Below, one piece after another: positions 4,935-9,179 of a stretch of DNA of 45,001 nt. Within the stretch, counting starts at the first letter, position 1; each line of letters begins with the position of its first letter. The stretch spans positions 1 to 45,001 of the forward strand of contig SDNY01000011.1 of assembly GCA_004524535.1 (NCBI GenBank), given 5' to 3'. This DNA is from Promethearchaeota archaeon. GTDB lineage: Archaea > Asgardarchaeota > Lokiarchaeia > Sigyniarchaeales > SOKP01. The notes below the pieces were generated by a model, which saw nothing but the letters and a program-made list of their open reading frames with translations, was not told the DNA's origin and ran no database searches. A program made the translations under genes and the position numbers.

Positions 4935-5515
4935 TCAAGTTCACCTTGTTCTAGTTTGGCTACTGAATATTTTTCAATCTCTACTCTAAATTCAATTAAA
5001 CTTAAAGAATACTTTCCAGTAATTATGATATCTCTAGCAATAATTTCCACAATTGGTTCATTGTCAGGAGGATTTTTATCATAATTATAACGAATATCTG
5101 TTACATTACATAGTACATCGCTTCTTACTATCTTAAAGTTGTCTCGTAATGTTAGACCGCTCTCACAATCTCCAAAATCTTCCTCTCCTTCGTAGGCCTT
5201 TATCTCGCGGCGAACGCTTTTCCCTGGGAGATAATCCTCATGATAATATCTGACATATACTTCTAACTCAAGTTCAAGATCTTCTAGGTCAAAATATCCT
5301 ACATTTTTAAATTTAAATTCAACCCTAAACTCCAGGGTTGTATCATTTACATCTAATATACGCCCCTTATAACTGTAATCAAAATCTATGTTGTCCTCAT
5401 CAGATAATATTAATACAGCTGAATATCCCCCAAGAAACGAAACTAACGACATTGTTGATGCTAATATCAAAAGCAATAATCTTGCAATCGACCTAATCAA
5501 TCGCGCTGTTCTCAT
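4931..5515 (-). CDS. Single-pass membrane protein with a beta-rich (LEA_2/Ig-like) domain
   Basis: N-terminal hydrophobic helix, then FRVEFKFKNVGYFDLEDLELELEVY alternating strands. First gene of a three-gene operon. Confidence 0.65.
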   Translation of the reverse strand: MRTARLIRSIARLLLLILASTMSLVSFLGGYSAVLILSDEDNIDFDYSYKGRILDVNDTTLEFRVEFKFKNVGYFDLEDLELELEVYVRYYHEDYLPGKSVRREIKAYEGEEDFGDCESGLTLRDNFKIVRSDVLCNVTDIRYNYDKNPPDNEPIVEIIARDIIITGKYSLSLIEFRVEIEKYSVAKLEQGELE

Positions 5516-5678
5516 ATAATTTCGACCTTCTTCAACGTAATTATTTTTTTTCGTTTAGATTTTTAGATAAATAAGTTTTACTTTAATATCTTCAAAATTA
5601 TTTATAAAACTTTTGCAAATTTTTTAAAAACAAATCATCTTTTTAGTATATTTTAAGTATATGGGACGGCCACATCCG

Positions 5679-5721
5679 TAAATCACTTATCTTCGATCAT
5701 TTTTAAGATAAGTTCATTTTT
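5679..5721 (-). promoter_or_regulatory. Eukaryote-type SECIS element in the 3' UTR
   Basis: Minus strand reads A-UGAA-CUUAUCUU-AAAAAUGAUCG-AAGAUAAG-UGAU: AUGA core at 5717-5714, perfect 8-bp stem (5712-5705 / 5693-5686), unpaired As at the 5' side of the loop, 3' UGAU at 5685-5682. It follows an ORF with an in-frame UGA. Confidence 0.8.
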
Positions 5722-6099
5722 TTAACCATATACATTGTTTTCTTTTTTAATAAACAATAATCCGATTTTTTCACTAGTTTTAGTCTCAGCAATATATGCA
5801 TCAATTACAATACGATTCTTCTTTTTCAATTCATTTATCTCATTTTTTTCAATGTATACTTGCAAATTAGCACCGACAGATGAAATACTATCAAATTCTG
5901 TCCATTTAATAAATTCCTCTTTATCATCGAGAATTTTATGCAATTCTACCAATTCAATAGCATTGCCACAAAAAGCCATAGTTCATGAATCTGATGAATA
6001 ATAAAATATAGCAACAACAAGCTTATCTAAATCAGATTTAATGTTTTCATTTTTTTCGGAGATATAATCTAATGCAGTTTGAGTGAATGATACTTTAAA
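5722..6099 (-). CDS. Putative selenoprotein (about 125 aa, Sec39, UxxxxC; possibly HesB/IscA-like fold)
   Basis: The frame of ORF 5722..5979 continues through TGA (5985-5983) to 6102: (F)KVSFTQTALDYISEKNENIKSDLDKLVVAIFYYSSDS-U-TMAFCGNAIELV...LQVYIEK. SD-like AGGTGAT at 6111-6105 and SECIS downstream. No canonical start codon (TTT at the expected position). Confidence 0.7.
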
Positions 6100-6104
6100 A
6101 TTTT

Positions 6105-6111
6105 ATCACCT
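6105..6111 (-). promoter_or_regulatory. Shine-Dalgarno-like AGGTGAT for the putative selenoprotein
   Basis: Complementary to the archaeal 16S 3' AUCACCU. GGTGA lies 6 nt before codon 6099, the same spacing as GGTGA-to-ATG at 27221 and 28451. Confidence 0.55.
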
Positions 6112-6341
6112 ATTTTATTTTTTTTGATTTTCTATAATAAATAAGAGTAATATATTAAACTAAAATATTTAGGTTCTATTTTTAAATTGCTAATTTTTAA
6201 GAATCTTAATAAAATTAAGGGAAATTATGACGTACATAAAAATATTTAAGAAATAAATTTTTATTGAACTTATATTTTTTCTGACTAACAGAAAATGTTA
6301 ATATTTTTTTAAAAAATCTATATAAAAAAAAAGATAATTGA

Positions 6342-9179
6342 ATGATTATGGAAGAAATCAATGCACACGCGATTAATGTCGAGGAAGTAATAAAAAAATT
6401 AGCTACTTCAATTGAAACTGGTTTAACCGAGAAAGAGGCTTTAAAAAGAATCGAGATTTATGGAAAAAATGAAATTATTAAAGAAAAAGGGAAAACAGCT
6501 TTACAAATCTTCATTGGTCAATTTAAAGATTTCCTTATATACCTTTTATTTTTAGCAATTGCAATATCTATTATTATTGGATTATATGAAGCATCAAGAC
6601 CTGGTGCTGAACCTTGGTCTACTGAATATACAGATGCGATTGTAATTGCAGCAATTTTGATAATCAATGCAATACTAGGGTTCTATCAAGAATATTCAGC
6701 TGAGAAATCCTTAGAGAGTCTTATGAAAATGGCTCCTCATTTCGCAAGAGTAAGAAGAGAGGGAAAAGTTGAACAAATTGGAGCAGAAAACCTTGTTCCA
6801 GGAGATATTATTTTAGTAGAAGAAGGTGATAAATTTCCCGCAGATATAAGATTTTATAAAGAGTTTTCATTATATGCTGATGAGGCACTATTAACAGGAG
6901 AGTCTAAACCGGTTAAGAAAACATTAAAACCCGTTGATTTAGAATTAATATTAGCAGATAGAACCAATCTAGGGTACATGGATACAATTATAACGAGAGG
7001 AAATGGAGAGGGAATAGTAATAGGGACGGGTATGAACACTGAAATCGGAAAAATTGCCGGAAGCTTACAATCAGAAGAACTTGAGCCAAGCCCATTTCAA
7101 AAGGAAGTAGATCGATTTGGAAAATTACTTGGAATCCTAATAATGATAATTTGTATCGCTGTTTTTGCTATTGAATTAGTATTAGTTATTTTTTTTGGAG
7201 AATTTGGGATTCAAGAGGATGATTTAGATGAAATTATTCATGCATTTGAAATTTCAATAAGCTTGGCAGTTTCTGCTGTGCCTGAAGGACTTGTTGTCGT
7301 TATTACGGTAGTGATGAGCATAGGAATGCGAAAAATGGCAGATCGAAATGCGTTAGTAAGAAAATTAACTGCCGTAGAAACGTTAGGAAGAGTAAATGTA
7401 ATTTGCTCAGATAAAACGGGAACATTAACAAAGAACGAAATGACTGTAGTTAAGATGTTCTTAAATAATAAGGTTCTAGATGTAGAAGGTGTTGGATACA
7501 ATATAAAAGGAAATATTCTGGAAGAGGGAAAAACAATGGCTTTGAATCCAGATCTCAAAAAATTTTTAGAGATCTGCCTTCTTTGTAATAATTCTAACGT
7601 AAACATCTTAAATCAAGAAACTGGAGAAACATCAGTAGTTGGTGATCCAACGGAAATTTCCATGAAAGTATTGGCTTTAAAAGGTAAAATTGATCCAACA
7701 TTTGATAAAACCGATGAAATTCCTTTCAATTCTGACAGAAAAATGATGACATCAATTGGAAAACGCGAGGGAAAAATAATTGCCTATATTAAAGGTGCTC
7801 CAGATGTTATCATGAGGAAAGCATCTAAAGTATTATTAAATGGTCAAGAGAAGCCAATGGGCGAGATGAAGGATAAAATCTTAAAACAGAATGATGAGTT
7901 TGCCGCAAATGCATTACGAGTTTTAGGCGTTGCGTATAAAGAACTACAAACAGGATTTAATATTGATACGGTTGAACAAGATTACACATATGTAGGTTTA
8001 GTCGGAATAATAGATCCTGCTCGAGATGAAGTAAAAGATGCTATTGCAGAAGCAAAAATGGCGGGTATCAGAACAATTATGATTACAGGTGATCATAAAG
8101 TTACAGCTTTAGCGATTGGGAAACAAATCGGTCTAACAGAATCAGATGAAGTTATTACTGGAATAGATTTGGAGAAAATGACAGACGAAGAGTTGCGGGA
8201 AAAAGTTCAAACAGTAGATATTTACGCTCGTGTTACTTCCGAACATAAACAGCGAATATTAAAACGTTTGAAAGACTTAGATAAAATCGTTGCTATGACA
8301 GGAGATGGCGTAAACGATGCTCCCGCAGTAAAACGCGCTCATGTTGGTATTGCTATGGGCATAACAGGCACAGAAGTCACTCAAGAAGCATCAGAAATGA
8401 TTTTGATTGATGATAATTATTCCACCATTGTAAATGCGGTAGAAGAAGGGAGAGGTATATTTGAAACAACTAAAGGTTTTTTTCGATTCATGCTTAGCAC
8501 AAATTTCGACGAAATTTTTATGATTTTAGTAGCATATATCGTAATGAAGTTCTTTGTTAATGTCTTTCTAGCCTTACCAGTAACACCTATACAAATACTA
8601 TGGCTTAACATTGCAACAGACGGCATACCCGCTATGGTCCTTGGTTTAACACCCACAGATCCAGATGTTATGAAAGATAAACCTCGTGAGGGATTTACGC
8701 TTTTACCAGAGATAAAAGGACCTGTGTTGTTCCTTGGAATTTATACATCTATAACAGATATCCTTCTTTATTTAGCTCTCTGGACATGGCTAATCCCTCT
8801 ATGGAGCACAACTAATCCAATGTTAGCTGGATATACAACTGTTGGTTCGGATGCCCGCTTATATGCTATTAAACTGACACAGACAATTATTTTTACCAAT
8901 CTAGTTATTTGCGAGTTGATGTTCGTTTTCACCTGCACTAGTAACATTAAACCATTCTGGTTATTTCCAAATAAGCATTTATTTTGGGCTACTGGGTTAT
9001 CTTTTGCGCTCCAACTTTTAATCCTTTACACTCCATTAGGATTAGTTTTTGGAGTCGTACCCCTAACTCAATGGTATCACTGGTTTGTAGTGTTTCTGGG
9101 AGCATTCAGCGTCTCGTTATTTGATGAGATTAGAAAATATTTACTTAGAAGAAAAAGAAGATTAGGATTAGAAACTTGA
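6342..9179 (+). CDS. Cation-translocating P-type ATPase (type IIA, Ca2+-ATPase-like)
   Basis: TGES, VPEGL, DKTGTLT, KGAPD, MITGD, TGDGVNDAP and QILWLNIATDG motifs. Confidence 0.95.
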   Translation: MIMEEINAHAINVEEVIKKLATSIETGLTEKEALKRIEIYGKNEIIKEKGKTALQIFIGQFKDFLIYLLFLAIAISIIIGLYEASRPGAEPWSTEYTDAIVIAAILIINAILGFYQEYSAEKSLESLMKMAPHFARVRREGKVEQIGAENLVPGDIILVEEGDKFPADIRFYKEFSLYADEALLTGESKPVKKTLKPVDLELILADRTNLGYMDTIITRGNGEGIVIGTGMNTEIGKIAGSLQSEELEPSPFQKEVDRFGKLLGILIMIICIAVFAIELVLVIFFGEFGIQEDDLDEIIHAFEISISLAVSAVPEGLVVVITVVMSIGMRKMADRNALVRKLTAVETLGRVNVICSDKTGTLTKNEMTVVKMFLNNKVLDVEGVGYNIKGNILEEGKTMALNPDLKKFLEICLLCNNSNVNILNQETGETSVVGDPTEISMKVLALKGKIDPTFDKTDEIPFNSDRKMMTSIGKREGKIIAYIKGAPDVIMRKASKVLLNGQEKPMGEMKDKILKQNDEFAANALRVLGVAYKELQTGFNIDTVEQDYTYVGLVGIIDPARDEVKDAIAEAKMAGIRTIMITGDHKVTALAIGKQIGLTESDEVITGIDLEKMTDEELREKVQTVDIYARVTSEHKQRILKRLKDLDKIVAMTGDGVNDAPAVKRAHVGIAMGITGTEVTQEASEMILIDDNYSTIVNAVEEGRGIFETTKGFFRFMLSTNFDEIFMILVAYIVMKFFVNVFLALPVTPIQILWLNIATDGIPAMVLGLTPTDPDVMKDKPREGFTLLPEIKGPVLFLGIYTSITDILLYLALWTWLIPLWSTTNPMLAGYTTVGSDARLYAIKLTQTIIFTNLVICELMFVFTCTSNIKPFWLFPNKHLFWATGLSFALQLLILYTPLGLVFGVVPLTQWYHWFVVFLGAFSVSLFDEIRKYLLRRKRRLGLET

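Follow-up and report, generated by a model that had tools for sequence, protein, structure and literature searches.

An unannotated Lokiarchaeial gene with an in-frame UGA, a 3' lokiSECIS element and a predicted IscA-like fold

The subject of this report is a gene on the minus strand of a 45,001-nucleotide stretch of contig SDNY01000011.1, from the genome of a Promethearchaeota archaeon; we refer to the whole stretch as the window. In current NCBI nomenclature the Lokiarchaeota are called Promethearchaeota. The features of the locus are listed in Table 1. Translation of the minus strand from 6111 to 5722 reads RU*NFKVSFTQTALDYISEKNENIKSDLDKLVVAIFYYSSDS-U-TMAFCGN...NVYG*, and from 6102 to 5725 it forms a single frame of 126 codons, whose sole interruption is one TGA codon. 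The product of this frame opens with NFKVSFTQTALDYI..., includes the N-terminal stretch FKVSFTQTALDYISEK... upstream of the TGA, and continues YYSSDS-U-TMAFCGN...NVYG. Open reading frame (ORF) calling with translation table 11 lists only the 85-residue tail. The original prediction, made from the sequence alone, was that this tail belongs to a longer frame broken only by the TGA, and the translation bears this out. Our reading, to which we assign a probability of roughly 0.88, is that the locus is a real, previously unannotated Lokiarchaeial selenoprotein gene in which this UGA is recoded to selenocysteine (Sec).

The length of the frame is weak evidence by itself. By a rough estimate, made without a tool, a stop-free extension of 40 codons would occur by chance in DNA of 30% GC with a probability of about 0.04, which is only mildly unlikely; it is the conservation described below that decisively places the gene beyond chance. 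An assembly artefact is unlikely, because contigs from three other sediment or seawater sequencing runs (X2-X4) extend over the TGA and agree with the window at 5983-5985, and two of these runs (X2 and X4) also have contigs over the start region, with no difference at 6100-6111. Two differences upstream of the TGA in those contigs, at 6040 and 6082, are synonymous third positions as judged by eye.

Table 1. Features of the locus and neighbouring genes, in window coordinates
Feature	Positions	Strand	Remarks
Shine-Dalgarno-like AGGTGAT	6105..6111	-	holds an out-of-frame GTG; basis: sequence and conservation in orthologues
Upstream in-frame TAA	6105-6103	-	frame open from here down to the TGA
Family start position, AAT in the window	6100..6102	-	not a start codon; TTG (16), ATG (4) or GTG (1) in orthologues
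Proposed coding sequence of a subfamily-A selenoprotein, 126 codons and the TAA	5722..6102	-	basis: conservation, AlphaFold2 model, predicted IscA/SufA-like fold
In-frame TGA, proposed Sec codon (U40)	5983..5985	-	TGA in 42 of 42 distinct orthologues; TGT in Cys paralogues
TGT, Cys45, the C of U-x4-C	5968..5970	-	invariant in the 11 subfamily-A rows of alignment A3
Tail ORF, 85 amino acids	5979-5722	-	only part listed by table-11 ORF calling
TAA stop	5724-5722	-	ends the 126-codon frame
Whole selenocysteine insertion sequence (SECIS) domain	5657..5733	-	lower stem closes it: last codons GUAUAUGG (5733-5726) with CCAUAUAC (5664-5657); seen in the minimum-free-energy fold
lokiSECIS core	5683..5717	-	AUGA 5717-5714; stem of 9 base pairs, 5713-5705 with 5693-5685; 11-nucleotide loop AAAAAUGAUCG, 5704-5694; GA 5684-5683
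Second small G+C-rich hairpin	5666..5679	-	ACGG, loop AUGUGG, CCGU; behind 19 of 19 aligned elements
Divergent P-type cation ATPase	6342-9179	+	Cation_ATPase_N/C, E1-E2_ATPase
Downstream gene, 194 amino acids	4931-5515	-	
Downstream gene, 172 amino acids	4416-4934	-	
Downstream gene, 334 amino acids	3411-4415	-	
ORF of 2116 amino acids	11230-17580	+	

When 40 related genomes were searched in all six frames, 14 of them yielded a total of 24 matches. Of these, 21 span both sides of the TGA, covering approximately residues 2-126 of the query, and contain a single in-frame TGA; another two are free of stops, with Cys at the Sec site; and one is weak (E 0.006) and probably spurious. Three subfamilies can be distinguished by the residues at the site. 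Subfamily A, to which the window's gene belongs, has U-T-M-A-F-C-G-N, and subfamily B has U-S-G-x-[FY]-C. Subfamily C has Q-A-C-A-G-S-Y, i.e., a Cys at the site, encoded by TGT, with the second Cys missing. In two genomes the subfamilies lie in tandem in the order A, C, B. We aligned 23 sequences from all three subfamilies (alignment A1; 20 Sec sequences and 3 Cys paralogues). The sole invariant column is position 40, which is U or C, and Cys45 is present in all 20 Sec rows and in none of the three rows of Cys paralogues.

An alignment of subfamily A (A3), used to scan GTDB species genomes, gave 36 further loci, with TGA at the site in all 36. Their titles name Promethearchaeota or Promethearchaeia metagenome-assembled genomes (MAGs), MAGs of "uncultured archaeon", and four MAGs labelled Hermod-, Hod- or Odinarchaeota. 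Once identical sequences are removed, 42 distinct subfamily-A genes remain, and TGA occupies the aligned column in every one. The homologues had been expected to match the frame before and after the TGA and to have either TGA or a Cys codon at that position, as the 21 spanning matches, the 42 orthologues and the Cys paralogues indeed do, and the contrary case that had been named, Trp or Arg at this position, does not occur: a TGG or Arg codon is found at the Sec site in 0 of the 42 distinct genomic orthologues. We calculated ratios of nonsynonymous to synonymous substitution rates (dN/dS) by the method of Nei and Gojobori (NG86) for the 71 pairs with an overall proportion of synonymous differences (pS) of 0.05-0.55. 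The median is 0.22 for the part before the TGA and 0.18 for the part after it; these medians are descriptive only, because the pairs share ancestry and are not independent. Separately, we noticed an additional TAA in two orthologues, L017 (G018:C60) and G317, located seven codons ahead of the normal end of the gene (FIK*SQDVYG*). The distance between SECIS and UGA is unchanged in them, and the explanation is either an error of sequencing or a slightly truncated C-terminus.

Protein libraries mostly hold the gene in pieces. A comparison of the A1 profile with 1.84 billion representative proteins found 67 at E <=0.001, many of which are pieces of 65-87 amino acids that start right after the TGA or pieces of 40 amino acids that end before it. 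We fetched 25 of the 67; eight of them have Cys at the Sec site, and one of these eight is a Cys-rich variant. Among 5.8 billion clustered proteins there were 15 matches, none of them named or assigned a Pfam domain, and 10 of the 15 have 81-86 amino acids.

These short forms might seem to suggest that the TGA is a plain stop, so that the product would be the 85-residue ORF starting at Met 5979 and the upstream 40 codons would be a separate small ORF or a leader. Table-11 calling does yield exactly this ORF, an ATG lies two codons after the TGA, and most of the matches in the clustered protein set have about this length. However, the codons on the two sides of the TGA are equally constrained, as judged by the dN/dS medians given above, and the parts that they encode fold into one IscA-like domain in the structural model described below. 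The Cys paralogues run unbroken through the site, and the Met after the TGA is not conserved, since T-T-F-F, T-S-I-F, L-M-S-F and S-G-T-F variants occur in its place. Moreover, a conserved SECIS stands only behind the genes that contain the TGA. We therefore consider a plain stop very improbable.

The SECIS itself lies in the 3' untranslated region (UTR), about 268 nucleotides from the UGA. The original prediction had placed a SECIS hairpin after the stop and had noted that Lokiarchaeota decode Sec with eukaryote-like 3'UTR elements. Both statements fit the window, which has the AUGA/GA core given in Table 1. In the portion of the published description considered here, a lokiSECIS consists of AUGA, a stem of 9 base pairs, an 11-nucleotide loop with leading adenines and a final G, and GA, located near the stop codon (Mariotti et al. 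2016, PMC4989117). The window's copy fits this definition point for point, with five leading adenines in the loop and a final G. It also has the form of the type I eSECIS-like element described in the main text of Huang et al. 2024 (PMC11227280). One difference is that the penultimate base of the loop is C in the window and mostly A in these papers, as far as their text goes, and in the orthologues. The second hairpin and the lower stem go beyond the published lokiSECIS description, figures and supplements aside.

The same element is found behind all 19 Sec genes for which 3' sequence is available, two more having run off their contigs, and no comparable element lies behind the three Cys paralogues. 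Across the family it consists of AUGA, a stem of 9 base pairs, a loop of 10-12 nucleotides (consensus AnAAAUGnUAG), GA, UUU and then the small G+C-rich hairpin, and the distance from UGA to AUGA is 230-278 nucleotides. The pairing is supported by covariation. In the main stem, changes on both sides are seen at 7 of the 9 pairs, and the proportion of paired cells is 94.7%. For the whole structure the figure is 91.5%, versus 79.0 +/- 1.5 in shuffled alignments, and 0 of 500 shuffles reach the observed value; in a control in which the 3' partner was slid, pairing was at most 52%. The second hairpin is also present behind the other SECIS elements of the window's genome; both partners vary in 2 of its 4 pairs, and its proportion of paired cells is 84%. 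The lower stem has a perfect complement of at least 6 nucleotides in 21 of 40 orthologues, 13 of the UAUGG/CCAUA type and 8 of the UACGG/CCGUA type. Because this synonymous change in a Tyr codon is matched in the 3' partner, the lower stem shows compensatory change.

The 36 loci added by the GTDB scan agree with this description. A regular expression flagged 25 of the 27 subfamily-A rows that were evaluated; of the two unflagged rows, L033 has no 3' sequence and L049 has AUAA instead of AUGA. In nine loci outside the motif filter the element is present by eye, three of them with AUGU for AUGA. One locus, L059, has an insertion of about 50 nucleotides in the SECIS loop.

We also built a covariance model (R1), trained solely on 19 UTRs of this selenoprotein family. 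R1 scores the window's element at 78 bits. A scan of the genome with R1 scored 150 of 4952 first-look candidates and gave the window's element only; the other elements were obtained with filters off on fetched loci. One of them lies about 245 nucleotides after the end of the match to the SelD hidden Markov model (HMM), with a score of 34.9 bits (E 5e-6); that match stops at model position 253 of 311. Another is behind the HdrA-MvhD pair on contig C96 (32.3 bits, E 2e-5), two are on contig C103 (30.8 and 27.4 bits), one is on contig C37 (22.2 bits), and a weak one is behind MvhD on contig C27 (11.2 bits, E 1.2). A crude pattern scan had marked the same places.

The elements on C37 and C103 are associated with genes that are of interest in themselves. 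On C37, positions 8277-8534 of the plus strand (378-635 of the fetched locus L071) hold an ORF for 85 amino acids, membrane-anchored, with an in-frame TGA in the context GGGG-U-GC and no Pfam match, which is followed by the lokiSECIS-like element at L071 661-732 (E 0.004). Judging by its sequence, this ORF is a candidate for a further unannotated selenoprotein. On C103, an ORF for 143 amino acids (L072 93-524, minus strand) has two adjacent in-frame TGAs (G-C-U-U) and likewise no Pfam match. It lies directly downstream of a 376-amino-acid S-adenosylmethionine (SAM) methyltransferase with Cys-rich ends (Methyltransf_31, E 2e-41), and the first element of this contig stands behind it (L072 88-17, E 4e-5). 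The second (L073 96-24, E 2.6e-4) lies about 55 nucleotides after the stop of a Cys-rich DUF5714 protein of 223 amino acids (L073 152-823, minus strand; E 1.5e-46) that has no in-frame TGA. Either the DUF5714 gene may have been converted from Sec to Cys with its SECIS left in place, or the element may act for a different gene.

Much of the Sec machinery is encoded in the genome that contains the window. SepSecS (485 bits) and SelB/EFSec (246 bits) are both over their cut-offs and lie 3 kilobases apart on contig C188, the SelD gene, which likewise scores over its cut-off, has one in-frame TGA, and a PSTK-like gene gives a full-length match (E 5e-42). It is also important to consider how the genome uses TGA in general. 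Among 1450 frames of at least 300 codons, 190 end at TGA and 180 at TAG, so TGA is not reassigned genome-wide, and several members of the family themselves stop at TGA.

We investigated the fold of the gene's product. An AlphaFold2 model made with A1 as the input alignment has a predicted local distance difference test (pLDDT) score of 86 and a predicted template modelling (pTM) score of 0.79. It consists of a strand (residues 3-6), a helix, a long beta-hairpin (28-38 with 43-53) that has U40 in its turn, and then further alpha/beta elements. In a Foldseek comparison with the PDB, the best nine matches are all IscA, SufA, HI1723, AQ_1857, HesB-like or putative Fe-S biosynthesis proteins, with 1r94_A at the top (E 3.8e-3, template modelling scores 0.54/0.66). 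VIA-align, which is independent of Foldseek, gives the same families, including DsrR, as its best seven matches, with Z from 7.9 to 4.4, and the next row has 3.3. The product is thus predicted to have an IscA/SufA/HesB-like fold, with moderate structural support. A likeness to HesB/IscA and CC/Se-motif proteins had been suspected at the outset, and modelling had been suggested as a check; the likeness stands at the level of the fold, but the matches to sequence HMMs are all below threshold. PF01521 matches 2 of the 23 members of A1 (best E 8.2e-5), TIGR01911 also 2 (best 19.4 bits, with a cut-off of 66.35), and NF041239 matches 6 (best 16.8 bits, with a cut-off of 40; best E 0.0052). For the Cys paralogue, the ESM Atlas gave leads that all score below 0.9, to clusters with PF01521 on 25% and 13% of their members and CC_Se_fam on 40%.

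Several results weigh against reading the gene as a selenoprotein with such a fold. With Pfam and NCBIfam at E up to 10, neither the window's protein, with the TGA translated as Cys, nor the 85-residue tail has a match to a relevant family. Searches of PDB sequences with profile A1 and with the Cys paralogue gave no IscA-type match. Alignment by hhalign with E. coli IscA (E 0.33) or with IscA, SufA and ErpA together (E 0.096) is not significant, and the Z scores from VIA-align are below 8, a range in which the tool warns that the likeness may be a common arrangement. An Rfam scan of positions 5300-6400 at E up to 10 gave only chance snoRNA-like rows and no SECIS family or model. The PSTK-like match is below the equivalog cut-off (144 versus 290 bits), and a tRNA-Sec was not found in the MAG either with Rfam RF01852, whose three matches are all below the cut-off and the best of which coincides with a tRNA-Arg, or with ARAGORN with and without intron mode. 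However, ARAGORN detected only 10-12 tRNA genes, many with introns, in this MAG of 198 contigs, which is rated 99% complete. Its tRNA complement is largely undetected or unassembled, and the failure to find tRNA-Sec is for this reason uninformative rather than negative. Of the machinery that the original prediction named, SepSecS, EFSec, a Sec-containing SelD and a PSTK-like gene are present. A further point is that 13 of the 25 fetched library proteins, all of them full length, have W at the Sec site; presumably gene callers read TGA as Trp in these cases. Finally, between the upstream TAA and the TGA the window's copy has no ATG, GTG or TTG, so conventional initiation cannot make its N-terminal 40 residues.

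Two of these points, the W residues and the failure to find tRNA-Sec, speak for the UGA being read as Trp or Cys, through local reassignment or near-cognate decoding. Against this are the use of TGA as a stop at a rate near that of TAG in long frames of the same genome, the family members that terminate at TGA, and the lack of TGG at the site among the 42 genomic orthologues. In addition, SepSecS, EFSec and a Sec-containing SelD are present in the genome, and the same 3'UTR element occurs behind SelD and MvhD. We regard decoding as Trp or Cys as scarcely credible.

The start of the gene is a more difficult matter. The original prediction correctly noted a strong Shine-Dalgarno sequence (SD) at the head of the longer frame but overlooked that no canonical start codon follows it. 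In nearly all orthologues, [A/T]GGTG[A/G] sits one codon before the start position. A canonical start is found in 25 of the 42 orthologues, four of which have it slightly upstream in frame, and is missing in the other 17. Ten of these have a near-cognate codon (CTG in 5, ATA in 2, ATT in 2, GTA in 1), and seven have a codon at least two changes away from AUG, namely AAT in two (the window and L059) and CAT, TGT, TTT, GAA and TAG in one each. Subfamily B also shows ATA and ATT at this position.

It could be that the family is genuine and that the window's copy is decaying or silent, i.e., that its start codon has been lost, AAT standing where orthologues have TTG or ATG, and that its translation has ceased. 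Both the lack of a start codon ahead of the TGA and the canonical start at or just before this codon in 25 orthologues speak for this possibility. Nevertheless, the 126-codon frame, the Sec codon, Cys45, the SD and the SECIS are all intact, contigs of two other runs show the same sequence in this region, and the differences at 6040 and 6082 read as synonymous. The arrangement TAA-AAT-TTT-AAA recurs in L059, which is an independent MAG, and 17 orthologues without a canonical start are more than independent losses would explain in a gene that is otherwise under constraint. Decay of the window's copy is therefore improbable.

One conceivable route of initiation makes use of the GTG within the window's SD. 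This codon opens the short frame GUG AUA AAA UUU UAA, which ends inside the conserved UUU AAA, and, to judge from these codons, a +1 slip on U_UUU from this minicistron would enter the gene's frame. The sequence U_UUU_UAA is present in 5 of the 7 non-cognate cases, i.e., those in which the start codon ends in T; by a rough binomial estimate (about 0.1) this is not significant. As a general rule for the family, +1 frameshifting was rejected, given that count and an early TGA in the GTG frame of L031. The translation start of the window's copy is an anomaly.

With these points in mind, we propose the following mechanism. The UGA would be recoded to Sec by the lokiSECIS in the 3'UTR, by means of its kink-turn-type AUGA/GA core, stem of 9 base pairs and A-rich loop of 11 nucleotides, and this lokiSECIS would be part of a three-way domain that also comprises the second small hairpin and a lower stem including the last three codons. 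The product, of about 126 residues, would adopt the alpha-beta fold of IscA/SufA/HesB and would present Sec40 at the apex of the beta-hairpin, the place at which A-type Fe-S carriers hold their first cluster-ligating Cys (IscA Cys35). Both of the non-significant hhalign alignments put U40 opposite IscA Cys35, with the N-terminal strand and helix in register, and Sec thus appears to occupy this position. Cys45, five residues past Sec, would replace the C-terminal CxC of A-type carriers: the window's protein has no Cys after residue 45, and A1 has no conserved C-terminal Cys column. We take Cys45 to be the partner of Sec because it is present with Sec in all 20 Sec forms and missing from the Cys paralogues. 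Together, Sec40 and Cys45 may make up the reactive site in what would be a small protein with a carrier or redox function. The most likely form of this, which we put forward tentatively, would be a homo-oligomer in which the Sec and Cys of each subunit bind an Fe-S cluster, a metal, or a sulfur or selenium species; the main alternative would be cycling through a selenenylsulfide.

A more specific combination of these ideas can be stated, and we think it unlikely as a whole. The protein would be an Asgard-specific, selenium-dependent stand-in for an A-type Fe-S carrier, with a cluster or a selenium or sulfur species held between Sec40 and Cys45 of two subunits. Translation would start without a canonical start codon in about 40% of lineages, the window's among them, either by placement through the SD on codons as far from AUG as AAU, CAU or UGU, or through a +1 shift from the four-codon GUG minicistron at U_UUU_UAA. 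A search for PF01521 proteins over the cut-off gave none in 20 genomes (the window's and 19 relatives).

Comparison with known families is important in judging how new this one is. HesB-like selenoproteins have already been known in Methanococcales and bacteria. Like them (TIGR01911), the new family has a small single domain of the HesB/IscA fold class without a C-terminal CxC, and one Sec, apparently at the first conserved Cys of the HesB domain; one member of subfamily A, L016, aligns over its full length, with residues 1-87 matching positions 1-83 of the 92 in TIGR01911. However, the scores of the family are far below the cut-off of this model, in the 2 of 23 members that match at all, and its proteins are about 30 residues longer. 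The new family is decoded by a eukaryote-like lokiSECIS, and the HesB-like selenoprotein by a GAA_A archaeal SECIS. The motif differs too: it is given as UxGP for HesB-like selenoproteins in Table 1 of a 2026 review, which assigns them to both archaea and bacteria (PMC13188914), as opposed to U-[TS]-x-x-[FY]-C in the new family, where USGP is found in only 1 of 7 subfamily-B rows. Finally, the new family occurs in Lokiarchaeia, for which the text of the Asgard surveys reports no HesB-like selenoprotein (PMC11227280).

The likeness to IscA/SufA/ErpA (PF01521) is seen in the best structural matches of the product (1r94, 2d2a, 1x0g and 1s98) and in the N-terminal strand-helix (xIxFTxxAxxxI) and the Cys-bearing hairpin, which line up in the non-significant hhalign alignments. 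Those proteins have C-terminal Cys-Gly-Cys ligands, whereas the product lacks them and instead has Sec with Cys45 in a 2-residue insertion. The CC/Se motif family (NF041239) is the commonest weak HMM match and also one of the ESM Atlas leads for the Cys paralogue (score 0.80), but the matches are partial and the new family has neither CC nor the CxxU listed for that family in Table 1 of the same review (PMC13188914).

In the genomes covered here, matches are almost confined to one Lokiarchaeial family. A sample of 301 genomes across the phylum gave 26 matches in all. In the window's GTDB family, 23 of 68 genomes match, in addition to the window's genome itself; in one other family, 2 of 6 genomes match, both weakly (E about 1e-6); and 0 of 226 genomes match in the remaining 28 families of the sample.

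The gene neighbourhood gives no functional lead. The divergent P-type cation ATPase listed in Table 1 is syntenic in 33 of 37 loci. The three downstream genes, which overlap or abut one another and have no Pfam match, are syntenic in 25, 22 and 16 loci, in the order of the table. Synteny is weak evidence here, because the loci are close kin. Further along, the window has an ORF for 2116 amino acids.

In the portions of the literature considered here, two surveys of Asgard selenoproteomes, mainly homology-based, report five families in the earlier case and seven in the later, without any that resembles HesB/IscA. The later one relies on homology to known families and names SelD, FrhA, HdrA, FrhD, Prx-like, AhpF-N-like and DsbA-like in its main text (Huang et al. 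2024, PMC11227280). A scan of two metagenomes that began from lokiSECIS elements gave, according to the main text, no further families (Mariotti et al., PMC4989117). The 2026 review has, in its main text, the same Asgard list and 11 archaeal families, among which the HesB-like one is included and not attributed to Asgard (PMC13188914). The full-text literature considered contains no report of a family like the present one, with the caveat that supplementary tables could list such sequences under another name. As a result, the earlier suggestion of an undescribed Asgard selenoprotein family holds in that the gene is outside the seven families named in those texts, but it requires qualification: the family represents a new and remote branch of the HesB/IscA fold that is restricted to Lokiarchaeia, the first for Asgard and with its own U-x4-C site, and not a wholly new kind of selenoprotein.

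Asgard archaea are the reference point for the origin of the eukaryotic selenocysteine system. Surveys that begin from homology miss lineage-specific selenoproteins such as this one, because neither Pfam nor NCBIfam has a model that would serve for it and gene callers shorten the protein to 85 residues. By contrast, the lokiSECIS covariance model recovers the family and also points to two further UGA genes of this genome that are uncharacterised. With two Sec subfamilies that have a resolving Cys and one Cys subfamily that does not, the family is a compact natural set on the role of Sec in an IscA-type site. The missing start codons, in turn, pose a directly testable problem of translation initiation.

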